DNA of 35,334 nt, taken from contig JAZSNU010000016.1 in assembly GCA_045536565.1 (NCBI GenBank), positions 1 through 35,334 on the forward strand. The letters run 5' to 3'. The first letter of the stretch is position 1, and each line of letters begins with the position of its first letter. The position numbers and the translations under genes are program-made. This document shows positions 841-28,895 of the stretch, piece by piece. The stretch comes from Clostridia bacterium. Its GTDB lineage: Bacteria; Bacillota; Clostridia; TANB77; CAG-465. Under the pieces are notes generated by a model. The model did no database searches. It worked only from the letters and a program-made list of their open reading frames with translations, and was not told the origin of the DNA.

Positions 841-1006
841 CTATCATAGGTGTATTAGATTTACACCTATGCAATTAAAAGTGACATAATGATTTAATAT
901 AATCAATATCAAATATATAAAAGATATACTTGAATAAAATCAAGTTATAAATAAATATGATAGATGTTGAACTTTGATAATTTTATATTTAAATGGAGGT
1001 TTTAAG

Positions 1007-2554
1007 ATGGTACCAATAATAGTAACATTTGCTATTACTGCTGCTATTGCCTCACCTATATTTTTTAGTATGGGTTCAAATCACAGAAGAAAAGTAGCTG
1101 AAAAAGAATTAGACAGTGCAGAAATGCAAGCAAAAAAAGTGATAGAGGAGGCAAAAAAAGATTCTGAGAGAATCAAAAAAGATGCGGCAGTTGAAGCAAA
1201 AGCAGAAACTTTAAAACAAAAAGAAGAAGCAGAAAAAGAAATAATTCATAGAAAAAATGAATTAAAAGAAACAGAAAAAAGAATTAACCAAAGACAAGAT
1301 TTACTTGATAAAAGATTTAATATTGTGGAAGAAAAAGAAAGTAGTCTTGCAAAAAAACAAAAAGACATTGAATTAAAAGAGGAAGCGTTAAAACAAAAAG
1401 AAATTGAAAAGAAAAATGAACTTCTAAGAATATCTAAAATGACTGTACAAGAAGCCAAAAAAGAATTAATGAAAAACTTAGAAGATGAAATGAAACAAGA
1501 AATGGCTGCATATATTATAGAAAGCCAAAACAAAGCAAAATATGAAGCAGAGAAAAAAGCGAAAACTATGGTTACAGAAGCAATACAAAGATGTGCTACT
1601 GACCATACAGCAGAAGCAACAGTATCTGTTGTAAATCTTCCTAGTGATGACATGAAGGGTAGAATAATTGGTAGAGAAGGAAGAAATATTAAGGCGATAG
1701 AAACACTTACTGGAATTGATATAATAATTGATGATACACCAGATGTTATTGTATTATCAAGTTTTGATCCAATAAGAAGAGAAGTAGCAAGAATTGCTAT
1801 TGAAAGACTTATGACAGATGGAAGAATACATCCTGGAAAAATTGAAGAGATGATTGAAAAAGCAAAAATAGAAGTTGCAAATACAATAAAAGACGAAGGA
1901 GAAAGAGCATTATATGAAACAGGTGTTATTAATCTTCACCCTGATTTAGTGCAACTTTTAGGAAAATTAAGATATAGAACAAGTTATGGCCAAAATGTTC
2001 TTAACCACTCTATTGAAGTTGCACATATTGCAGGACTTTTAGCATCTGAATTAGGTCTTGATGTATCGTTTGTAAAAAGAGCAGGGCTATTGCATGATAT
2101 AGGTAAATCAGTAGACCATGAAGCAGAAGGGACACATGTTGAACTTGGTGTTGAAATATTAAAGAAATACAAAGAGTCTGATAAGGTGATTAATGCTGTT
2201 GCAGCACACCATGGTGATACTGAGCCTCAAACATTAGAAGCGATACTTGTTCAAGCGGCAGATACAGTTTCAGCTGCAAGGCCAGGTGCTAGAAAAGAAA
2301 CAGTAAGTACATATATTAAAAGACTTCAAAAACTTGAAGAAATATGTGATGGATATAAAGGCGTTGATAAATCATATGCAATTCAAGCAGGTAGAGAAGT
2401 TAGAATTATTGTTAAACCAGAAGAAATTGATGATGCAGGGGCAGTTTTAATGGCTAGAAACATAGCAGCTCAAATTGAAAAAGAAATGAATTATCCTGGA
2501 CAAATCAAGGTAAATGTAATAAGAGAAACAAGAGCAATAGAAACAGCAAAATAA
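1007..2554 (+). CDS. rny: Ribonuclease Y
   Basis: N-terminal TM anchor, coiled coil, KH motif ([11 protein letters not shown]), HD domain (LLHDIGK, AAHH, QAAD). ATG at 1007 follows GGAGGT. Confidence 0.97.
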
Positions 2555-2555
2555 A

Positions 2556-2586
2556 AAAGGGCGGCAATAGTAAAGCCGCTTTTTTC
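2556..2586 (+). terminator. Intrinsic terminator after rny
   Basis: GCGGC-AATAGTAAA-GCCGC followed by TTTTTT. Confidence 0.6.
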
Positions 2587-2606
2587 CTAAGATAGAAGGT
2601 GTTAAA

Positions 2607-3395
2607 TTGAAATTTTTAATTATAGGAGATGTTGTAGGAAGAAGTGGGCTTAATATTATAAAAAATAATATTAACCAAATTAAAGAAAAGGAAAATATAG
2701 ATTTTATTATAATAAATGGAGAAAATTCTGCAAATGGTAGAGGTATAAAAGAAAAGGAAATGAAAGAAATTTTTTCTTTTGGTGCTAATGTAATTACAAT
2801 GGGAAACCACTTGTATTATAGGAAAGAAGCAAAAACATTATATAAGAATATGGATAAACTACTTATACCTGCCAATGTTACCAATTTAGATGGACACGGT
2901 GTAAACATTCAAACAGTCAAAGGTAAAAAAATTGCTGTTATTAATTTACTTGGCAAAGTGGGAATGGGAGAACTTAATCAAGAAAATATATCAGATCCGT
3001 TTAAAAAAGCAGAAGAAATTGTAAAAGAGTTAAAATCTCAAAATGTAGATTATATATTTTTAGATTTCCACGCAGAAGCAACAGCAGAAAAAATAGCAAT
3101 GAGTCATTTCTTAGAAAATGATGTTACTTGTGTGTTTGGAACACATACTCATGTTCAAACATCCGATGAGGAAGTATACGAATCAGGTTTGGCGTATATA
3201 ACTGATGTTGGAATGTGTGGACCTAAAAATAGTGTGCTTGGATTAAAAAAAGAAATAGCTGTTGAAAGATTTGTAACTGGTGAAAGAATAAAATACGAGT
3301 GTAGTGATAATCCAGGATTTTTCAGAAGTGTAATTGTAGAAACTGATGATTCTACAAATAAAGCTATAAGTATAAAGAGATATAATATTGGATAG
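2607..3395 (+). CDS. ymdB: YmdB-family (TIGR00282) metallophosphoesterase
   Basis: GDVVG, NGENS, TMGNH, DFHAEAT, GTHTHVQT and TDVGM motifs; conserved rny-ymdB-spoVS order. Confidence 0.95.
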   Translation: MKFLIIGDVVGRSGLNIIKNNINQIKEKENIDFIIINGENSANGRGIKEKEMKEIFSFGANVITMGNHLYYRKEAKTLYKNMDKLLIPANVTNLDGHGVNIQTVKGKKIAVINLLGKVGMGELNQENISDPFKKAEEIVKELKSQNVDYIFLDFHAEATAEKIAMSHFLENDVTCVFGTHTHVQTSDEEVYESGLAYITDVGMCGPKNSVLGLKKEIAVERFVTGERIKYECSDNPGFFRSVIVETDDSTNKAISIKRYNIG

Positions 3396-3949: not shown

Positions 3950-5560
3950 ATGGAAAAAAGATATATAAATGAAGAAAGGTATAGAAAGACTGCAAGAACA
4001 AAAAATAGAAGACGAAGCATAGTAAAATCCACTAGAAATATTAATAGTAAAAATGTACAAAAGAATAAAAAATCTAACAAGAAAAAATACAAAGTGAAGA
4101 CCGGTAAATTAGTTAGATTTATTTTTTGCCTTTTAATATTATTAGTCATTGCTGTTTTTGCAAGAGTCATAACAAGAAAAGAAAATGACCCTTTCATACC
4201 AGTATTTTTTAATAATGATATAGAAGAAAATACACAAACTGTTAATATAGCAGTATATACAAATGCTAACATAGGTGCAAATAACTCAATTGTAACAGAA
4301 TTAGAACAATATATATATCCTATGTTACTTAAAATAAATAGCAACTATGAAATAAAGTATGAAGTTGTATCTAGTGTAAATAAAATAAATAACAAAGAAT
4401 ATGAAATAATATTAGATTCGGGTAGTGATATAAATTCGGTTGAAGTAAAAGATACAATAGATAAGATAATAGCCGAGAAAAACAAATATTATTATAAAGT
4501 GGAAAATGTTGATAAAGTAGAAATAAAGTCAGAAACCGAGTTGAAAATAACATTAAAAAATGAAGACGAGTATTTTATATACAACCTAAATATACCTATA
4601 TACAAAGAGGTTGAATGTTATGGAATATATAAAATAAAAAATAACTCAAACGATAAATTGGAACTTTCTAGAAAAGAAAGTGTCAATAAACAATATATTA
4701 AAAATATTAATATTATTAAAATAAATAGTGAAGAAGAAGCAACTCAAAAGTATAAAGAAGGAGCTATTGATGTATACTTTTGTAGTTCAACAAATAGTTT
4801 AAAAATGTTAGGGAAATATGAATATGATGTAAAATCATATAACAATGGTGAAGGAATATTTTTAATGTTTAATCCTAACTCTGTTATGACGAGAGAAAAA
4901 TATATAAGGCAAATTATAGCGTATAGCATAAATAGAGAAGAAATAGTATCACAAGTAGGAAATGGAACAGCAGAAATAATTGACTTACCATATATATATG
5001 ATGATGAAAAATATAAATATGATGTATATGCAGCAGAAAATATAATTCGTTCAAACTGTTATGAAAAACAAGGACTATATTATATGAAACATGGGAAGAA
5101 ATTTACATTAGAGTTAATAGTAAATAAAGATGATGAAGAAAGAAATAATATAGCAAATAAAATCAAAAATGATTTACTAAAAGTAGGAATAGATGTAAAT
5201 ATACATAAATTAAGTGAATCAGACATTCGTTCTAAGGTTTCAACTGGTAATTATGATATTTTACTTGCAAGTGTATATATGAACGAAAATCCTAATATTA
5301 ATCATGTACTAAATAATATTGTTGTAACTGAAAATATAGCAAATCAGATGGATACAATTAAGAGTGATAAGTTGGAAAATTTAGCTGGTAATTTAGAGAA
5401 ATTAAAGACTTGTATATCAGATGAAATAGGGATATATGGTATATACTCTAAACAGACATATGTTATTTATAAAAAAGGTTTAGATATATTTAAAAATATA
5501 AACTATGTTAATTTGTTTGGGGAATATTTTAATACGGAGGTAAATAAAAATGGCGTATAG
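3950..5560 (+). CDS. Divergent family-5 (oligopeptide/nickel-type) ABC substrate-binding-like protein with basic N-terminus and TM anchor
   Basis: 'IRQIIAYSINREEI', 'LELIVN...IA..IK.DL.KVGIDV.I...GNYDILL' resemble SBP family 5. Likely ATG at 3950 after GGTGA. Confidence 0.6.
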   Translation: MEKRYINEERYRKTARTKNRRRSIVKSTRNINSKNVQKNKKSNKKKYKVKTGKLVRFIFCLLILLVIAVFARVITRKENDPFIPVFFNNDIEENTQTVNIAVYTNANIGANNSIVTELEQYIYPMLLKINSNYEIKYEVVSSVNKINNKEYEIILDSGSDINSVEVKDTIDKIIAEKNKYYYKVENVDKVEIKSETELKITLKNEDEYFIYNLNIPIYKEVECYGIYKIKNNSNDKLELSRKESVNKQYIKNINIIKINSEEEATQKYKEGAIDVYFCSSTNSLKMLGKYEYDVKSYNNGEGIFLMFNPNSVMTREKYIRQIIAYSINREEIVSQVGNGTAEIIDLPYIYDDEKYKYDVYAAENIIRSNCYEKQGLYYMKHGKKFTLELIVNKDDEERNNIANKIKNDLLKVGIDVNIHKLSESDIRSKVSTGNYDILLASVYMNENPNINHVLNNIVVTENIANQMDTIKSDKLENLAGNLEKLKTCISDEIGIYGIYSKQTYVIYKKGLDIFKNINYVNLFGEYFNTEVNKNGV

Positions 5561-5723
5561 TGATAAAGAACTAAGTAATATGATAAACAATATATTAAAC
5601 GGTGTAGATATAAATGAACCGGTAGGATATGTTGACCAAAAACAAAGAGAATTCATTTCTTCTCTTCAAAATATGGTGGAAGATAGAGATGCAGCACTTA
5701 GAAATTATAGAAATTTAATATAG
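5550..5723 (+). CDS. Small hypothetical protein (57 aa, MAYSDKELSNMINNILNG...RNYRNLI)
   Basis: GGAGG at 5536-5540, ATG at 5550 overlapping the upstream gene's end, TAG at 5721-5723; below the ORF-track cut-off. Confidence 0.7.
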   Translation: MAYSDKELSNMINNILNGVDINEPVGYVDQKQREFISSLQNMVEDRDAALRNYRNLI

Positions 5724-5749
5724 TACTTGACATATGGTGTATAATATAT

Positions 5750-5836
5750 ATGTACCTTTTTCTAAGATATAACTTTCCTTAAAGAGTTACTTCTTGGTTT
5801 AAGGTGAAGAAATATTAATTTAAGGAGGTCATTAAC
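5750..5836 (+). promoter_or_regulatory. Probable rpsO (S15) autoregulatory leader
   Basis: Structured 5'UTR (ACCTT...AAGGT and TAACTT...GAGTTA pairings) ahead of AAGGAGG. S15 leaders are established in Firmicutes; the match here is by eye only. Confidence 0.4.
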
Positions 5837-6100
5837 ATGACAAAGGAAAGAAAAGCAGAACTTATAAAGACTTATGCACAAGGTGAAAATGATACTGGAA
5901 GTACAGAAGTACAAGTAGCATTATTAACTGAAAGAATCAATGAACTTACAGAACACTTAAAAGTTCATAAAAAAGACGAACATTCAAGAAGAGGTCTTTT
6001 AAACATGGTAGGTAAGAGAAAAAGTTTACTAAGATATCTTGAAGGAAGAGATATTGAAAAATACCGTGAATTAATTGCTAAATTAGGAATTAGAAAATAA
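5837..6100 (+). CDS. rpsO: 30S ribosomal protein S15
   Basis: [30 protein letters not shown] signature. Confidence 0.99.
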
Positions 6101-6108
6101 TATCTTAT

Positions 6109-6140
6109 AAGAAACAGTTCAAAATTACTGTTTCTTTTTT
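6109..6140 (+). terminator. rpsO terminator
   Basis: AAGAAACAGT / ACTGTTTCTT stem plus T-run. Confidence 0.8.
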
Positions 6141-6148
6141 ACTTTTTA

Positions 6149-6176
6149 TTGATAAATACATGAAAAAGTATATAAT
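6149..6176 (+). promoter_or_regulatory. SigA promoter of ncRNA copy 1
   Basis: TTGATA(6149-6154)-16 nt-TATAAT(6171-6176). Confidence 0.6.
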
Positions 6177-6182
6177 ATATAT

Positions 6183-6641
6183 ACTGGTTAATTTATATGA
6201 TATTGATACTAACTATGTATCAGGGATTGTATATTAATAATTGTGATTGCTAATTTAAGTAATAATTTACTTGCTTAGTAGCGGCGAGCGAAAGTGCAAG
6301 CATTCCACCAGTAGAAGAACTGTGAGAAGAGCTGATAGGCTATGGGGTGAAGTCGTAACTTTAAATTACTTATTGTGCTGTAAATCACATATTAATATAA
6401 ATTTAGCTATAATATTTTCATTGTATAGTCAATGGATTAGCTATTTAATAGTTTTATCGTGTGGAGAAACGATAAACTAGCAGGGGAGACAAGCAAAATC
6501 TGAATATAATAAATAATGTAGCTAGCAAATTATTTATTGAAATAAGTCAGATTCCTTGTGGGTATAAAGAGTTTTTCCGGAACTCTCCCGAAAGTCTATA
6601 AAGCAGAAAGGGCGGCACAAGTGGGTGTTGTCCTTTTTTTC
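6183..6641 (+). ncRNA. Unassigned structured ncRNA, copy 1 (cargo loop contains rRNA-identical segments)
   Basis: Own promoter and terminator (AAAGGGCGGCAC/GTGTTGTCCTTT + T-run, 6607-6641), no credible ORF, stems covary with copy 2. Confidence 0.7.
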
Positions 6642-6690
6642 TTTTTAAATATGTTATGTATCCAAAAATATCGAATTATCGCGTTAAATA

Positions 6691-6719
6691 TTGACAAATG
6701 TATTTTATAGTAGTATAAT
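6691..6719 (+). promoter_or_regulatory. Consensus SigA promoter of ncRNA copy 2
   Basis: TTGACA(6691-6696)-17 nt-TATAAT(6714-6719). Confidence 0.85.
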
Positions 6720-6725
6720 ATGTGT

Positions 6726-7120
6726 TGTAATAAATGATAATTGATATTAATTATGTATCAAGGTATATTAAATAATGTGCACACCTCCAAACAAAAACCA
6801 CATGTAATATAAAATAAAAGAATAAAAACAAATTGTTTTACTCAAAGAGATTAAATAAAATCGCATGCTTAGCACATTATTTTAATATAAAATTAGTGAT
6901 GAAGTCCAATGGGGTTGGACAGAACTATTTAATAGTATGAAAGTATATAACCGAGGATTACAAGTAATACTAGCAGAGTGATGGGACAAAATCTAAATCA
7001 GTAAAATAGAATTTTCCTTAGCCATTAAATTTTAGTTTATAAATGATTTAGTAGCTCTGTGGATAATTATCCAAATGTCCTAAACTTATGAGCGTCTCGT
7101 AGTAGACGCTCATTTCTTTT
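6726..7120 (+). ncRNA. Unassigned structured ncRNA, copy 2 (paralog of copy 1)
   Basis: Perfect promoter; terminator ATGAGCGTCT/AGACGCTCAT + T-rich tail (7088-7120); same ordered stems and conserved linkers as copy 1. Confidence 0.7.
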
Positions 7121-7141
7121 ATATAAAAATATATGGTTTAA

Positions 7142-7170
7142 TTGAATTTGTTAAAGATTTAATATATAAT
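7142..7170 (+). promoter_or_regulatory. SigA promoter of topB
   Basis: TTGAAT(7142-7147)-17 nt-TATAAT(7165-7170). Confidence 0.6.
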
Positions 7171-7203
7171 ATGCATATCGTAAAAAAAGATAGAGTGAGG
7201 AAA

Positions 7204-9159
7204 ATGGGCAAAAAAGTAATAATAGCAGAAAAACCAAGCGTTGCAAGAGAATTTGCTAAGGCTTTGAATATAAATGGAAAAAATCAAAATGGGTATATAG
7301 AATCAGATGAATATATAGTTACATGGTGTGTTGGTCATTTAATTACAATGAGTTATCCTGAAAAATATGATGAGTCTTTAAGGTATTGGAATTTAAAGAC
7401 ACTTCCATTCATACCACAAGATTTTAAATATGAGATAATAGAAAATGTATCCAAACAGTTTGATATAGTTTCAAATATATTAAATAGAGAAGATGTTGAA
7501 ACGATATATGTATGTACTGACTCAGGAAGAGAAGGAGAATACATATATAGATTAGTTGATGATATGGCAGGAAATCCAAACAAAGAAAAGAGAAGAGTAT
7601 GGATAGATTCGCAAACGGAGGAGGCTATAAAAGAAGGTATAAATTCGGCTAAAAAGTTAGAAGAATATAACAGTTTATCTGATGCAGCATATTTAAGAGC
7701 AAAGGAAGATTATTTAATAGGTATAAATTTTTCTAGACTTTTATCTATAATATATGGAAAAGATTTAGCAAAAAAACTATCGCAAGATAAAGCAGTAATT
7801 TCCATAGGTCGTGTTATGACCTGTGTACTTGGAATGATTGTAAAAAGAGAAAGAGAGATAAGGGATTTTAAGAAAGTTAATTTCTATAAAATACAAGCGT
7901 TATTCGGTGAAAATGAAGAAACTGGAATTTTATGCGACTGGAAAGCGTCAGAAGGGTCTAAATATTTTGAACATCCTAAGTTATATAATGAAACAGGATT
8001 TAAGAAAAAAGAAGATGCAGAGTTGTTTATAAAGGAACTAAAAGCAGGTAATCAATATGGAATAGTAAAAGAAGTAACTAAAAAAACTCAAAAGGAAAAA
8101 CCACCGCTTTTATTTAATCTTGCTGAAATTCAAAACGAATGTAGTAAAAGATTTAAAATAACACCTGAGGAAACTTTAAATTTTATTCAGGAACTATATG
8201 AGAAAAAGATGGTTACTTATCCAAGAACAGATGCTAGGGTGTTATCTACTGCTATTGCAAAAGAAATAAAGAAAAATTTAAATGGGCTTTTTAAATCAAA
8301 TATAGATAAAGAGATAAAAGAATGTTTGAATAAAATGATAGAAGAAAAATATAGCACAAATTTAATTAAAACAAAATATGTAGATGATTCAAAAATAACA
8401 GAACACTATGCAATAATTCCTACGGGGCAGGGATTTGAAAATTATGAAAAATTAGCAGCGCTTCCAAAAGAGATATACCACTTAATAGTAAGAAGATTTT
8501 TAAGTATATTTTATCCGCCAGCAGAATTTAATAAAATGACTGTAAAGATAAATGTGGGAAATGAAGAGTTTAGTGTAAATGGTAAAGTGTGCATAAATCA
8601 AGGGTATTTAGAAGTTGCAAAACATGAAAAAGTAAAATCATCAAAGGAAGATGAAGAAGCTAAAACGGATAATATAGAGGCGTTAAAAGAGCTGAAAAAA
8701 GGTCAGCAAATTAATTTGATTGATATGAATGTTAAAGAGGGAGAAACCTCTCCACCTAATAGATATTCTTCTGGCTCTATAATACTTGCTATGGAAAATG
8801 CGGGTAAACTAATAGAGGACGAAGAACTTAGAGAACAAATAAAAGGGAGTGGTATTGGAACTAGTGCTACAAGAGCCGAAATAATAAACAAACTTACTAG
8901 AATAGAATATATAGCAATAAACAAAAAGACACAAATACTTACCCCTACTGAAAAAGGAGAGGCTATATATGATATTGTTATAAAGACAATGCCAGATATG
9001 TTAAACCCAAAACTTACTGCAAGCTGGGAAAAAGGACTTACTATGGTTGCTCAAAATGAAATAAAAGCAGATGAGTTTATGAAAAAGCTAGAAGAATATG
9101 TTAGTTCGAAAGTTATTAAACTAAAAAAAGCATATAATAATTTTTATTATGGCATGTAA
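7204..9159 (+). CDS. topB: Type IA DNA topoisomerase (topoisomerase III-like)
   Basis: TOPRIM IAEKPS, TW..GHL, TDSGREGE, catalytic TYPRTD, GIGTSATRA.II. ATG at 7204 after GAGG. Confidence 0.9.
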   Translation: MGKKVIIAEKPSVAREFAKALNINGKNQNGYIESDEYIVTWCVGHLITMSYPEKYDESLRYWNLKTLPFIPQDFKYEIIENVSKQFDIVSNILNREDVETIYVCTDSGREGEYIYRLVDDMAGNPNKEKRRVWIDSQTEEAIKEGINSAKKLEEYNSLSDAAYLRAKEDYLIGINFSRLLSIIYGKDLAKKLSQDKAVISIGRVMTCVLGMIVKREREIRDFKKVNFYKIQALFGENEETGILCDWKASEGSKYFEHPKLYNETGFKKKEDAELFIKELKAGNQYGIVKEVTKKTQKEKPPLLFNLAEIQNECSKRFKITPEETLNFIQELYEKKMVTYPRTDARVLSTAIAKEIKKNLNGLFKSNIDKEIKECLNKMIEEKYSTNLIKTKYVDDSKITEHYAIIPTGQGFENYEKLAALPKEIYHLIVRRFLSIFYPPAEFNKMTVKINVGNEEFSVNGKVCINQGYLEVAKHEKVKSSKEDEEAKTDNIEALKELKKGQQINLIDMNVKEGETSPPNRYSSGSIILAMENAGKLIEDEELREQIKGSGIGTSATRAEIINKLTRIEYIAINKKTQILTPTEKGEAIYDIVIKTMPDMLNPKLTASWEKGLTMVAQNEIKADEFMKKLEEYVSSKVIKLKKAYNNFYYGM

Positions 9160-9623: not shown

Positions 9624-10136
9624 ATGATTAAATTTAATGAAGTAAGACTTACAGATGAAGCAAGAAGTAAAATTGTACTATTATACCTTGGATGTAAATT
9701 ACATGGAATTGGAAGCACAAGAATAAATTTTCTTGCTAACCAAGTTATATTATCGGGAGCAACAGGAAAAAAACTTACATTTTCTTCAGCACATGTAATA
9801 TATGATGCAGAAGAATTAATCGATTTCGTATATGATTATATTTATGAAGAGATGAGAAAATTTCTTTATCCAAATGGAAAGGTATTAGATTCTTCTTTTC
9901 TCGAAAGAGATGGTGAAATTCTTTCTGAAAAGGGAGTAATGCTTAAATTAATAAACAAAATATTTGACTTTGATTTCTTTGAAGGAATAGACGATGGTGA
10001 TGTATATATAGCAATTACTGAACAAGTAGCGCTATATACAAACTCTTGTACTACAAGGATAACTACTCTTAAACAAAGTCCTATATATAGACATGTTGAG
10101 TTAGTAAGACAAGCAATAAGAGAATATAGAAAATGA
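9624..10136 (+). CDS. Hypothetical protein (170 aa)
   Basis: AAGGAGG RBS, strong promoter; no motif recognised. Confidence 0.75.
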   Translation: MIKFNEVRLTDEARSKIVLLYLGCKLHGIGSTRINFLANQVILSGATGKKLTFSSAHVIYDAEELIDFVYDYIYEEMRKFLYPNGKVLDSSFLERDGEILSEKGVMLKLINKIFDFDFFEGIDDGDVYIAITEQVALYTNSCTTRITTLKQSPIYRHVELVRQAIREYRK

Positions 10137-13598: not shown

Positions 13599-14441
13599 AT
13601 GTTTAAAGAGTTTTTTAAAAATGAATGGAATTTATTCTTACAAGATATGGAGGCAATAGGAAATGCATTTCTTAGTTTCTTCTCAAGAAAAGAAGAACCA
13701 TTAATGATAGCAGCTGCACCAGAAATGGCAGAAGAGCCTGTTGTACAAGAATATGTTCCAGATGAAGTTGACTACAAGGTAGAGACATATTTTGGAGAAA
13801 ATATAGTTGAATTAAAAGAAAGTTTCTGCGGAGACAAAACTCAACATGAAGTTTTAAGAGAATATGCACAATTCTTTAAACCTTATGGTGAAAATGCAGA
13901 AATGTGTCAAACAGCTTTCAAAAAATATTATGATAGACATGCTTTAAAAATGGCAGTTAATGATTTCCCGGTTGAACAAGCAAGAATAATTCAAAACAAT
14001 GTTGACCTATTTATTGAAGGACAAGAAGTGTTTGGAGAAAACGGACAATTTATTGATTCAAGAGTTGATTCAATATTTGAAAAAGCTGGAATGGACAGAG
14101 TTTCTAAAATGGTTAGTATTTTAGGAGAAGTAGATGAAAATGGAGTAAACTATCAAGGTGAAAGAACATTTGCAGAAGCGATTTGTCATATGGTTGATAA
14201 CGGAATCAAAGTTCAAAAAGATGGAGATTTAGTAAATCCAGTAAGAAAAGCATTAGAAGAAAAATTAAACAATGTGCATGCTTCATTAAGAAGTCATGAA
14301 GATTGGAATGATGATTATCAAGCATTGCTTTCACAAGAAAGAAAATATTTATATGCTTTAAATAGAATAGAGCAATATGAAACAGAAGAAAGAATAGCTG
14401 AATTCGAAAGCAAATTAAACGAACTAGATGTTGTAGTTTAA
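13599..14441 (+). CDS. Hypothetical acidic protein (280 aa)
   Basis: GAGGTG RBS, long ORF, downstream terminator near 14464-14497. Confidence 0.75.
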   Translation: MFKEFFKNEWNLFLQDMEAIGNAFLSFFSRKEEPLMIAAAPEMAEEPVVQEYVPDEVDYKVETYFGENIVELKESFCGDKTQHEVLREYAQFFKPYGENAEMCQTAFKKYYDRHALKMAVNDFPVEQARIIQNNVDLFIEGQEVFGENGQFIDSRVDSIFEKAGMDRVSKMVSILGEVDENGVNYQGERTFAEAICHMVDNGIKVQKDGDLVNPVRKALEEKLNNVHASLRSHEDWNDDYQALLSQERKYLYALNRIEQYETEERIAEFESKLNELDVVV

Positions 14442-15659: not shown

Positions 15660-17135
15660 ATGAAAATTAAATTAAATGTTCAAAAAGATGGTGAAAACTT
15701 AATTAAGGATAGATTACTAAAAGAGAGTGAATCTAAACCTAAAAAAGTATATTTCTTTATGGGGAATATAAAAGAAAGTGGATTTGATATATTAGAAGAA
15801 TGCCTAATAGATTTAAAAGCAAAGAAACTTATTGTTATAGGAATAGACAAAAAGAATACTACTAAAAAAATGTTAGATACATTATATAATTATACAAAGA
15901 GTGTATATGTTTTTAATAATAATGAATTAGTTGAATTTGATAGTAATATATGGGTATTTGAATATGAAAATAAAGCAAATATATATATTATGAATTCAAA
16001 TGTATCAGAGGGGTCATTTATAGATGATATAGCAACATATACTACTGCCGAGTATGATTTAGAAAATAAAGAAGATACAGACTCATATAAAGAGTATATA
16101 AATAATCTAGTATCTATTTCTAAATTAGATAGTGCTAAAAAGTTGGAAAAAGAATATATAAAAGAATTATTTGATTCAAAACAAATATTTACAACTAAAC
16201 AATACACACATAGTATTATGACAATAGCAGAACTGTTAGGTGAAAAAGAAGAAGCCTCTAAAAAGGAAGAAAAAATATCAGATGATGATATAGTTGTAGA
16301 TGAAGATATAAAAGATGAAAAAATAAAAATACCAACAGTAGATTTAAGTAGCATGGAAGATTTTAGCATTGATATAGATATTGATATAGATGATTCCATT
16401 AGAAGAGAAGAAGCAATAATAGAAGAAATGGAACAAAAACCAAACAAAAAGGAAAAAACAGAGAAAAAGGATGAGCATCTACAAGAAGAAATAAAAAATG
16501 AAGTATACGAAGAACTAGATGATATGATGGATGATGACTTTGAACTAGATAGTGATGGCGCAGTTGATATAGAAAGTCTTCTATTTGAAAAAGCAGATAT
16601 AACTCTTGATAAAAAGAGTATAGATAAAAAAATTACAAAAGCAAAAGAGGAAAAGGAAGAAAAATCAGTAACTAAAAAAGTAGACTTAACAAAAGTTAGT
16701 AATTTAATTATGGAACTTCCTAAAAAACCAACAAAAGGAAAAGATGTATCTGTTGTTAAGGTGCCAAATTATATAAAGGATATGATACCAGATTTCTTTG
16801 GGGCTATGGTTAAGGCTAAATCTGTGGAAAAAGTGGATGGCGTATACAGAGAAAGCAAAATAAAATTGGAAGTTGTGGATATATTATCCAATGAAAAATT
16901 CACAGACAATAATGCGACGCTCGTATCAAAAGCAGGACAAACATATATAGTGTTTGCATCAGAAGGATTTAAAGATATAAGCTATATTGAAGGGGATATA
17001 GTTAGAATTATTAAATTATCTGATGATACATATCATATGGAAATAGTGTCACAAAGTGCGCAAGAATATAAAATATGGAAAAAATTATGTACAAAGAACT
17101 TCAAAGGGTCAAGTAGAAGTTACGGAGTAATGTAA
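15660..17135 (+). CDS. Degenerate PLD-fold (restriction-endonuclease-like) N-domain + acidic linker + C-terminal domain
   Basis: 'IVIGIDKKNTT', 'FDSNIWVFEYENKANIYIMNSNVSEG' resemble PLD-type FHxKhYhF...hhGSxNhT but lack HxK. Central D/E-rich tract. Confidence 0.5.
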   Translation: MKIKLNVQKDGENLIKDRLLKESESKPKKVYFFMGNIKESGFDILEECLIDLKAKKLIVIGIDKKNTTKKMLDTLYNYTKSVYVFNNNELVEFDSNIWVFEYENKANIYIMNSNVSEGSFIDDIATYTTAEYDLENKEDTDSYKEYINNLVSISKLDSAKKLEKEYIKELFDSKQIFTTKQYTHSIMTIAELLGEKEEASKKEEKISDDDIVVDEDIKDEKIKIPTVDLSSMEDFSIDIDIDIDDSIRREEAIIEEMEQKPNKKEKTEKKDEHLQEEIKNEVYEELDDMMDDDFELDSDGAVDIESLLFEKADITLDKKSIDKKITKAKEEKEEKSVTKKVDLTKVSNLIMELPKKPTKGKDVSVVKVPNYIKDMIPDFFGAMVKAKSVEKVDGVYRESKIKLEVVDILSNEKFTDNNATLVSKAGQTYIVFASEGFKDISYIEGDIVRIIKLSDDTYHMEIVSQSAQEYKIWKKLCTKNFKGSSRSYGVM

Positions 17136-23424: not shown

Positions 23425-24855
23425 ATGAAAAACAAAGGAATATCGCTAATAGTTTTAGTTATAACTATAATAGTTATGATAATGCTTGCTACGGCAATAA
23501 TTCTCGCTTTAAATAATAGTGGTATAATTGGTAAGTCAAATGAGGCTGAATTTAAAAACAATTTGGCTGTATTAAAAGAAAAATTGATGCTAGCTAAAAG
23601 TAATGAGTTGCTAGGAGAAGATTATGATTTTGATTCGTTAATCCCAGATAATATGAAAAAATATTTCGGTATATCAGAGGATAAGGAATTAATATATACT
23701 GGTGATCCTGATTTGAAACAAGCAAGGTGGGCTGCTGAGGAAGGAATAAAAGTTATAGTTGCAGAAGAAGAGCCAGAGGTAGAAACAGAGGAAGTAAAGT
23801 TTAAAAAAGATATAGCAGCATTACAAGATTCGTTAAATACAGCAAAAAACAATCAATCGCAAGATTCAAATGAAGACTTTAATTCTCTAATACCAGATGA
23901 TAAGAAAGAGTATTTTAGCATATCAAAAGATGATGAAATAATATATATAGGAAATCCTGAATTAGAACAAGCAAAGTGGGCTAGCGAAGAAGGTATACAA
24001 GTAGTAGATGGCGTATTATATAAACTAAGTGAAAGTGTGAGTCAACTTATGGATTTAGCAAGGGCATATGTAAAGGCAGGAAAGAGCACTGTAAAACCTA
24101 ATGAGTTAGCTTTGCAATATATAAGAAAAGACAGATATAAATCATCTAGTTGGAAAGTACTTGCGGGTAGTATTGATACAAATTTTGTAACATATGTTGA
24201 TAGCAACAAAGATTCAGATATGAAGTTTATTGATATTGAAGATCCAGTAACGGGAGAAGAAATTGATTTTGTACATATGATGGCATCGCTAAATGCATAT
24301 GAATATAGAGACGAAAGTATGTTAGCTACAGAGTATGCTTGTTGGGCTGGTGATTTATGTACATTAGGTAAACAAGTTGATGAGTTTGTTGATGCAAATT
24401 ATACTCCTGATACTTTGGATGATGACGCAATATTAGCACATGCAAAATCATTATTAGGAAAAAATAATGTAAATTCATCTTTTTCACTATCAGATATGTT
24501 AGCAGATGTTGACGCTGTTAATTTAAGTAACTTAACAGTAGGAACAGATGATTTAGACGACGCATTTTACGACTATTATATTGGAGATAAGAAGAATATA
24601 TTAGAAAGAAGATATGAGCATTTTAATAATTATTTACTAAATACTGTATATAATCATGATCAAGTTTATAAGAGTCCATCAGGAAAAGAAAAACTATTTT
24701 ATATTTCCATGAGCGTTGTGGGTAGATATTCTAGTCTGGGATTTTCGTATGCATGTGGTGTACTTGGTAGTACGGCGATATATGATAATATCGATCCTAT
24801 ATCGTGGCATATGGTATCTGTTGCTTTTGAAGAATTTATTAATAGTAATTTATAG
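23425..24855 (+). CDS. Type IV pilin-like leader protein with tandem ~72-aa repeats and C-terminal DFxH...WAGDL...D..ADVDA domain
   Basis: MKNKG|ISLIVLVITIIV prepilin-like N-terminus (no Glu5); internal repeat; conserved-looking C-terminal motifs. Confidence 0.65.
   Translation: MKNKGISLIVLVITIIVMIMLATAIILALNNSGIIGKSNEAEFKNNLAVLKEKLMLAKSNELLGEDYDFDSLIPDNMKKYFGISEDKELIYTGDPDLKQARWAAEEGIKVIVAEEEPEVETEEVKFKKDIAALQDSLNTAKNNQSQDSNEDFNSLIPDDKKEYFSISKDDEIIYIGNPELEQAKWASEEGIQVVDGVLYKLSESVSQLMDLARAYVKAGKSTVKPNELALQYIRKDRYKSSSWKVLAGSIDTNFVTYVDSNKDSDMKFIDIEDPVTGEEIDFVHMMASLNAYEYRDESMLATEYACWAGDLCTLGKQVDEFVDANYTPDTLDDDAILAHAKSLLGKNNVNSSFSLSDMLADVDAVNLSNLTVGTDDLDDAFYDYYIGDKKNILERRYEHFNNYLLNTVYNHDQVYKSPSGKEKLFYISMSVVGRYSSLGFSYACGVLGSTAIYDNIDPISWHMVSVAFEEFINSNL
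23542..24006 (+). repeat. Intragenic tandem domain duplication (aa ~40-111 and ~123-194)
   Basis: DFDSLIPDNMKKYFGISEDKELIYTGDPDLKQARWAAEEGIKV vs DFNSLIPDDKKEYFSISKDDEIIYIGNPELEQAKWASEEGIQV. Confidence 0.9.

Positions 24856-28818: not shown

Positions 28819-28895
<77 letters not shown>

Follow-up and report, generated by a model that had tools for sequence, protein, structure and literature searches.

The window analysed here is a stretch of 35,334 nucleotides (nt) on contig JAZSNU010000016.1 of a Clostridia bacterium. Between the ribosomal protein gene rpsO and the topoisomerase gene topB it contains two successive transcription cassettes for large structured RNAs, called copy 1 and copy 2 below (coordinates in Table 1). 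Very probably, each cassette is an independent gene for a stable noncoding RNA that is highly structured and acts in trans, of a family unmatched in the catalogues searched; their stability and action in trans are what we infer. The recognition of a new family, defined by an ordered, pseudoknotted fold (elements S1 to S6) that covaries across species and comes with its own promoter and terminator, is well supported. The genomes of relatives in which the family was sought are labelled G000 to G090, and their genera g1 to g6.

Both cassettes begin at a near-consensus promoter-like site and end at an intrinsic terminator. Three terminator-like hairpins were found in positions 5500 to 7400, against 0.3 expected from shuffles, the third being that of rpsO. 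Neither cassette holds a credible open reading frame (ORF): the only ones are of 33 to 69 amino acids (aa), have TTG or GTG as start codon, and fall within regions that differ between the copies. Both copies are predicted to fold more stably than their dinucleotide shuffles, with z values of -2.89 for copy 1 (0 of 100 shuffles as good) and -2.53 for copy 2 (1 of 100). The promoter, terminator, and ORF scans agree with a sequence-only reading made earlier, which had described two promoter-to-terminator units (6149-6641 and 6691-7120) without a credible ORF. Its further claim that they are not leaders of topB is borne out by their own promoters and terminators, by a downstream gene that varies from genome to genome, and by a promoter-like site belonging to topB itself.

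As this reading had envisaged, a covariance model was built from the copies and searched in Clostridia genomes. Consensus folds derived from MAFFT alignments of four sequences were poor, and plain BLAST in the relatives returned mostly promoter-like noise; the homologues were found by a pattern for the S1 hairpin and by covariance models, R1 (of the 141-position 3' core) and R2 (rebuilt). With R1, the core of copy 1 scored 117.7 bits and that of copy 2 66.5 bits. A total of 22 distinct copies was obtained, 20 of them beyond the two in the window, at 1 to 4 per genome. Within the host family, R1 matched 14 of 79 genomes: 3 of 6 in g1, which includes the host, 10 of 13 in g5, and 1 of 50 in g4, with no match in g2, g3, or g6. 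R1 had no match in 98 genomes of four other families of the order, and R2 had no credible match in another 147 genomes from the class, where two marginal matches (E of 0.003 and 0.009 per genome, covering 73 and 87 nt against 141 positions) were taken as chance. The S1 pattern located copies in 10 of the 79 host-family genomes (a reversed control pattern gave one match), and a combined S1 and S2 pattern run across the whole species-genome collection hit only 10 contigs, from the same genomes as the model matches. Two matches in a pattern scan of metagenome contigs lay in coding-looking DNA, fitted the model in neither case, and were also taken as chance. No similar RNA was found in viral contigs (0 matches) or in phage and plasmid collections, and no third copy in the host genome by sequence and covariance model searches. 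The family is hosted by uncultured gut Clostridia whose genomes measure ~1.1 to 1.4 Mb.

All 14 copies for which the S1 search extracted the upstream 60 nt have a near-consensus promoter of their own (for the remaining 8, the sequence upstream was inspected by eye), and all 14 aligned copies end in a terminator. Their surroundings differ. Tandem sets occur in G023 (three copies plus a minimal fourth), G089 (three), and G090 (two). In the congeners G001, G002, and G004, a P-type ATPase gene directly follows rpsO and there is no RNA at the site, while in G005 the topoisomerase gene comes directly after rpsO and the sole RNA copy is on another contig. In g5, the copies follow rplS or a peptidase-like gene, or precede a membrane acyltransferase-like gene (identities by eye). 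The cassettes are accessory genes, found at differing loci and missing at the same site in congeners. Because the genomic context varies, they are very unlikely to be cis-acting. After the terminator of the class A copy in g5 (L035:1930-1990 and L037:1340-1400), there are near-repeats, each with an A-rich end, followed by a small ORF whose product looks by eye like a Spo0E-type phosphatase.

The elements listed by the sequence-only reading, S1 to S6 and a pseudoknot in the same order in both copies, were all found in place. S1 is a hairpin whose stem is kept in the other copies through double changes and wobble pairs, as is its 7-nt loop. S2 is a duplex of 17 to 20 bp in 20 of the 22 copies, conserved at its base and class-specific in its distal part. 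The pseudoknot joins a bulge of S5 to the stretch just ahead of the terminator. A short 5' leader is semi-conserved in the family. The linker between S3 and S4, called invariant in that reading, is so between the two window copies, but across the family alignment only a shorter purine-rich core is kept. An extra pairing of the S1 loop with this linker is possible, the two looking complementary by eye. Pairing of the 5' leader with the 3' tail was also considered and rejected, as by eye it is not conserved.

Covariation was counted over the 22 distinct cores, in an alignment that was fitted to the model, leans toward it, and includes many close kin. At the core pairs, 91.5% of cells hold standard pairs, vs. 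33 to 48% when partners are slid by 1 to 3 columns, and the observed covariation score was reached by 0 of 500 shuffles. The RNA strand is fixed as the + strand by G-U pairs, of which one in the core is present in all 22 copies and another in 12. The pseudoknot is invariant in most copies; its pairing is kept through three independent double changes, in window copy 2, G005, and G023_x, two of which the automatic alignment misplaces and therefore counts only one. The unpaired nucleotides adjoining the pseudoknot are invariant. The expected covariation of stems and pseudoknot is thus supported by the pair counts, together with double changes seen by eye, and the homologues are not of the kind that would lack it, 15 of the 21 core pairs changing on both sides.

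Variation is concentrated at four tips, the S2 insert, the tip of S3, the S5 inner hairpin, and S6, all of which differ between paralogues. The S2 insert ranges from ~10 nt (in G023_x) to ~200 nt, the structured inserts being put elsewhere in the analysis at 90 to 250 nt. On an 11.5-kb DNA contig from a close relative, the same site as in the window is occupied by one copy only, in which the S2 insert and the inner hairpin are replaced and the scaffold is kept; the DNA runs X1 to X3 yielded only pieces of the stretch. From these comparisons, the family appears to have a chassis with several exchangeable tips rather than one cargo loop. The sequence-only description of a conserved scaffold with a swappable cargo loop holds as regards a scaffold with variable insertions, but the S2 insert is not the sole variable site. 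When compared with the rest of the genome, the inserts matched nothing except RNase P RNA. The minimal member G023_x (L063:1200-1700, on contig C29 near 7500) has almost no S2 insert, and its pseudoknot is changed on both sides.

Some of the tips carry exact copies of segments of 23S and 16S ribosomal RNA (rRNA) and of RNase P RNA, which had gone unmentioned in the sequence-only reading. In the S2 insert of eight copies from two genera, 16 to 18 nt are identical to Escherichia coli 23S rRNA positions 241 to 256/258, and a ninth copy (G090_c1) has a C-to-U variant that is the version found in the four recovered 23S genes of the family. In local folds, the 23S-like segment is always closed by a flanking helix of differing sequence, as in 23S rRNA itself. 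The segment of 16S rRNA reproduced in copy 1 (1485-1501) is the 3' strand of the top of helix 44; the G005 copy is identical to it over 14 of 14 nt, in a different hairpin, at the loop of the S5 inner hairpin. Three copies of another class (G023_c0, G023_c1 at L036:1805-1835, and G089_c1) have an RNase P-like segment spanning the linker between S3 and S4 together with the 5' strand of S4. It is identical over 25 of 25 nt to positions 54 to 78 of the G020 RNase P RNA and matches the RNase P RNA of G023 itself over 24 of 25 nt and that of G089 over 20 of 20 (E of ~1e-9). Inside this segment, an A/G variant is shared by RNase P genes and RNA copies within the genus. All the long look-alikes are on the sense strand, and antisense matches reach at most 12 nt to the rRNAs and 11 nt to RNase P RNA. 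In the host genome, the 23S-like and 16S-like motifs occur only in copy 1. Short sense matches, which include those near 23S positions 120 and 2083 and 16S position 781, were disregarded.

The RNAs had no counterpart among known families. We compared the window with the 4227 models of Rfam 15, which include ROOL, GOLLD, OLE, raiA, HEARO, T-box, riboswitches, Y RNA, and the signal recognition particle (SRP). At gathering thresholds nothing matched the RNAs, the sole match in the window being a transfer RNA (tRNA) at 28822-28895; at E ≤ 10, the region 5700-7300 gave three matches, far below threshold and driven by the terminators, and at E ≤ 1 nothing fell on the RNAs in eight related loci. The claim of the sequence-only reading that no known RNA family is matched therefore held for Rfam 15. 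The genome has its own RNase P RNA (C1:18429-18740), and the RNase P RNAs of the relatives lie at other loci, at 252 to 265 bits with RF00010; what the family shares with RNase P RNA is a segment of 20 to 25 nt, present in only three copies. The 6S RNA of the genome is located at C15:122544-122704 (48 bits), and one transfer-messenger RNA (tmRNA) was found on another contig. A fragment or pseudogene of an rRNA operon was rejected too: the likeness is limited to islands of 16 to 18 nt and 14 to 17 nt, no small- or large-subunit rRNA model matched in the window, and the islands of copy 1 are in the wrong order for an operon, the 23S-like one upstream of the 16S-like one. A Y RNA of a Ro60 ribonucleoprotein (RNP) was discarded, with no TROVE match in a genome that is 100% complete and in which the search was accompanied by control genomes that did match. 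The portions of the literature covered, PMC11109978 among them, describe no such RNA, and candidate supplements, for example the 1,085 of a 2020 bioRxiv preprint and the Breaker-laboratory surveys, could hold the motif.

The closest parallels are with four groups of known RNAs. Bacterial Y RNAs are ~100 to 200 nt long, are encoded next to rsr, and bind Ro60, YrlA carrying a tRNA-like module. They (Ro60/Rsr, YrlA) resemble the present RNAs in combining a conserved part with a mimic module, in often having side-by-side paralogues, and are tied to the handling of structured RNAs such as rRNA. However, the RNAs described here are of 395 to 550 nt and of another fold, their genome is without a TROVE/Ro60 gene, and no Rfam Y RNA model is matched. 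With ROOL, GOLLD, OLE, and raiA they share being long, stand-alone, intricate RNAs, mostly of Bacillota, with a patchy distribution and a function that is unknown or partly known; in contrast, the present family has no Rfam 15 match and a much more restricted distribution, with 14 of 79 genomes of a single family. We know of no tandem paralogues with swapped tips, nor of exact rRNA or RNase P segments, in ROOL, GOLLD, OLE, or raiA. RNAs that act by mimicry, such as ribosomal-protein mRNA leaders, 6S RNA, and tmRNA, reproduce a binding site to capture its partner, and the 23S-like hairpin has such a form. The leaders, however, act in cis on the mRNA that they regulate, whereas here the RNA is stand-alone and without an ORF, and the 6S RNA and tmRNA of the genome are located elsewhere. 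A conserved scaffold with a variable segment is also found in guide scaffolds (omega RNA of IscB/TnpB, HEARO, IS110 bridge RNA, retron msr-msd), but in the family studied here there is no adjacent effector, no Rfam match, and no genomic target match, and the inserts are structured and 90 to 250 nt long.

Table 1. Positions of the two RNA cassettes, their structural elements, and the flanking genes in the 35,334-nt window.
Feature	Position	Strand	Basis or remark
rpsO (ribosomal protein S15), upstream flank	5837-6100	+	Pfam Ribosomal_S15, E 1.6e-36
rpsO terminator-like hairpin	6109-6136	+	Terminator scan
Copy 1 promoter-like site	6149-6176	+	-35/-10 hexamers, 16-nt spacer; 11/12 consensus positions
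Copy 1 RNA, ~460 nt	6183-6641	+	5' end inferred from -10 hexamer, 3' end from terminator
Copy 1 S1 hairpin	6203-6223	+	7-bp stem, conserved 7-nt loop
Copy 1 S2 arms	6229-6248/6382-6399	+	Duplex -12.5 kcal/mol
Copy 1 S2 insert (133 nt)	6249-6381	+	
Copy 1 23S-like segment, 16 nt	6277-6292	+	Identical to E. coli 23S rRNA 241-256 (blastn-short, exact-match scan)
Copy 1 16S-like segment, 17 nt	6343-6359	+	E. coli 16S rRNA 1485-1501, 17/17, E 1e-4
Copy 1 S3 hairpin	6404-6443	+	
Copy 1 S3/S4 linker	6444-6452	+	
Copy 1 S4 hairpin	6452-6476	+	Outer pairs to 6479
Copy 1 conserved 3' core	6480-6604	+	Tail to 6604; models R1 and R2, covariation counts
Copy 1 S5 outer helix	6480-6486/6552-6559	+	
Copy 1 pseudoknot strands	6487-6490/6594-6597	+	4-5 bp
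Copy 1 S5 inner hairpin	6500-6550	+	
Copy 1 S6	6560-6589	+	
Copy 1 intrinsic terminator	6605-6638	+	14-pair stem, then T run
Copy 2 promoter-like site	6691-6719	+	12/12 consensus positions
Copy 2 RNA, ~395 nt	6726-7120	+	Fold z, R1 score, element coordinates
Copy 2 S1 hairpin	6741-6761	+	
Copy 2 S2 arms	6762-6780/6872-6889	+	
Copy 2 S2 insert (91 nt)	6781-6871	+	
Copy 2 S3 hairpin	6894-6927	+	
Copy 2 S3/S4 linker	6928-6936	+	
Copy 2 S4 hairpin	6934-6971	+	
Copy 2 S5 outer helix	6973-6978/7055-7060	+	
Copy 2 pseudoknot strands	6983-6987/7077-7081	+	4-5 bp
Copy 2 S5 inner hairpin	6993-7051	+	
Copy 2 S6	7061-7072	+	
Copy 2 intrinsic terminator	7088-7113	+	10-pair stem, then T run
Promoter-like site ahead of topB	7142-7170	+	10/12 consensus positions
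topB (type IA topoisomerase), downstream flank	7171-9159	+	Pfam Topoisom_bac, E 4e-106, and Toprim

The host genome is of 1.13 Mb in 22 contigs, with ~28% G+C and a completeness of 100% by marker genes. The wider window holds housekeeping genes identified with Pfam (RNase Y, YmdB, a solute-binding protein, a P-type ATPase, and SMC); it is neither a prophage nor a mobile element. The genes for RNase Y and YmdB, both of which act on RNA, are at 974-3395, 3 to 5 kb upstream of the RNAs, a proximity that is probably ordinary synteny. Four ORFs of 170 to 491 aa (9624-10136, 13599-14441, 15660-17135, and 23425-24855) have no Pfam family at E ≤ 0.001.

A metatranscriptome provided one contig of 158 nt identical to positions 6799 to 6956, inside copy 2, which is a weak hint of expression. 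That run covers nothing more of this organism here, and its other pieces that fall on the stretch belong to other organisms, with 3 to 5 differences per ~40 nt.

Regarding how the RNAs may work, we regard molecular mimicry as the most likely principle, on the strength of sequence comparison and at a rough probability of 0.38, which falls short of even odds. It is favoured because exact sense-strand copies sit on exchangeable tips, and because the copy of 23S persists in two genera while its closing helix covaries. Each RNA is very probably transcribed from its own strong sigma-70-type promoter up to its own intrinsic terminator, and folds into a compact chassis made of the S1 hairpin, the long S2, the small S3 and S4, and a 3' core (S5, its inner hairpin, and S6) locked by a pseudoknot of 4 bp. 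Under mimicry, this chassis would make the RNA stable and might offer a protein handle common to all copies, and the hairpins on display would bind, titrate, or divert factors that normally recognise the same sites on the ribosome or RNase P, for which ribosomal or assembly proteins, RNA-processing or ribotoxic nucleases, and possibly tRNA are candidates, and the tandem paralogues might cover different ligands. The sequence-only reading had offered a guide, a template, or a decoy as the payload; the exact 23S, 16S, and RNase P look-alikes lend some weight to the decoy, while guide and template are unsupported. It had also supposed that any partner protein is encoded elsewhere; no partner protein was identified.

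A bolder form of the mimicry reading, which we think unlikely, is a decoy system made of RNA only, in which a chassis that is hard to degrade and doubly locked displays exact replicas of sites at which the ribosome and RNase P are vulnerable or bind ligands. Ribotoxic nucleases, antibiotics, assembly factors, or tRNA could be sequestered in this way. The 16S replica covers the decoding-site adenines, the place at which colicin-E3-type ribotoxins cut as well. If the decoy system were real, the tandem paralogues would be exchangeable baits, in an RNA-based immunity or buffering of a kind not described in bacteria.

Several observations weigh against mimicry or limit its reach. No look-alike is detectable in window copy 2, in both G003 copies, or in class B copies, so mimicry is not the whole story unless there are ligands that are unknown. 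Matches to rRNA of 11 to 13 nt are about as common on the antisense strand (5 vs. 5 distinct for one 23S). The RNase P-like segment lacks the pairing that it has in RNase P, its 3' half pairing with another partner in S4, and this change fits capture by recombination as well as it fits mimicry. The rRNA genes are unassembled in the host and its nearest relatives, and consequently the RNAs are not comparable with the rRNA of the host itself; no 23S gene is assembled in the near-complete metagenome-assembled genomes (MAGs) G000, G003, G005, G009, G017, and G023, and 23S and 16S matches are each present in 5 of the 79 family genomes, mostly partial, which is usual for MAGs. The family is missing from 65 of those 79 genomes and is dispensable, and the evidence for expression is one contig from one RNA library, which can hold DNA.

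Among the alternatives, the main one is that the RNAs are architectural, self-assembling, or RNP-scaffold orphan RNAs whose tips are expansions that are tolerated, with the look-alikes as folding modules captured through recombination or gene conversion and having no mimic function. This is possible but on balance doubtful. Conservation resides in the chassis and not in the inserts, one member has almost no S2 insert, and the distribution is patchy, as for other orphan RNAs; the different pairing of the RNase P-like segment and the A/G variant shared by RNase P genes and RNA copies, as gene conversion would give, point the same way. However, none of the three long look-alikes is antisense, two genera retain the 23S-like hairpin while its flanking helix covaries, the g5 inserts look by eye far richer in G+C than the DNA of their hosts, which suggests selection, and neither sequence nor model matches ROOL, GOLLD, OLE, or raiA. 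A ribozyme, with the double-strand-locked core as catalytic centre and the tips as peripheral stabilisers, strikes us as improbable. The compact pseudoknotted core, the invariant unpaired nucleotides beside the pseudoknot, and a size range like that of RNase P or group I introns would suit it, but the genes are accessory, no ribozyme family in Rfam 15 is matched, and neither a substrate nor a splice junction or sign of self-cleavage was seen.

The view that the RNAs are guides or templates for an RNA-guided nuclease, transposase, recombinase, or reverse transcriptase encoded elsewhere has very little in its favour beyond a scaffold with a variable segment, which is the general layout of omega, bridge, and retron RNAs. 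The inserts are long, structured, and by eye apparently G+C-rich instead of short and unstructured, they match nowhere else in the genome except in RNase P RNA, and the short 5' leader is semi-conserved, not free to vary. In the contexts read (rpsO/topB, confirmed by Pfam, and rplS, peptidase-like, and membrane acyltransferase-like genes, by eye), no reverse transcriptase, TnpB, IscB, or recombinase gene is adjacent, and no genome-wide effector search was made; nor is there an Rfam match to HEARO or other guide-RNA families, or any occurrence in the phage, plasmid, and viral collections. Least credible of all is a cis-regulatory leader (attenuator, riboswitch, or T-box-like) of the downstream gene. 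Each unit does have its terminator a short way upstream of a gene, but that gene can be the topoisomerase, a membrane acyltransferase-like gene, a small Spo0E-like one, or a gene on the opposite strand (those other than topB identified by eye), and in tandem arrays copy follows copy. In addition, a promoter-like site precedes topB itself, no RNA separates rpsO from the adjacent topB in G005, and no alternative antiterminator pairing is evident.

Bacterial RNAs of large size and intricate fold are, to our knowledge, rare, and every example up to now has led to new biology or new structural work. The present family offers a compact pseudoknotted chassis of 395 to 550 nt that tolerates the exchange of modules at four positions, and its tandem paralogues differ mainly in the exchanged modules. 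As a natural display scaffold, it may be of interest to RNA engineers, with the minimal G023_x as the smallest natural chassis. If the rRNA and RNase P copies on these stand-alone RNAs are functional, they would represent a new use of mimicry, as decoy, sponge, or buffer; if they are not, they would clearly illustrate how structured RNAs evolve through the capture of modules from other RNAs. The finding also shows that accessory RNA genes persist in the reduced genomes (~1.1 to 1.4 Mb) of uncultured gut Clostridia.

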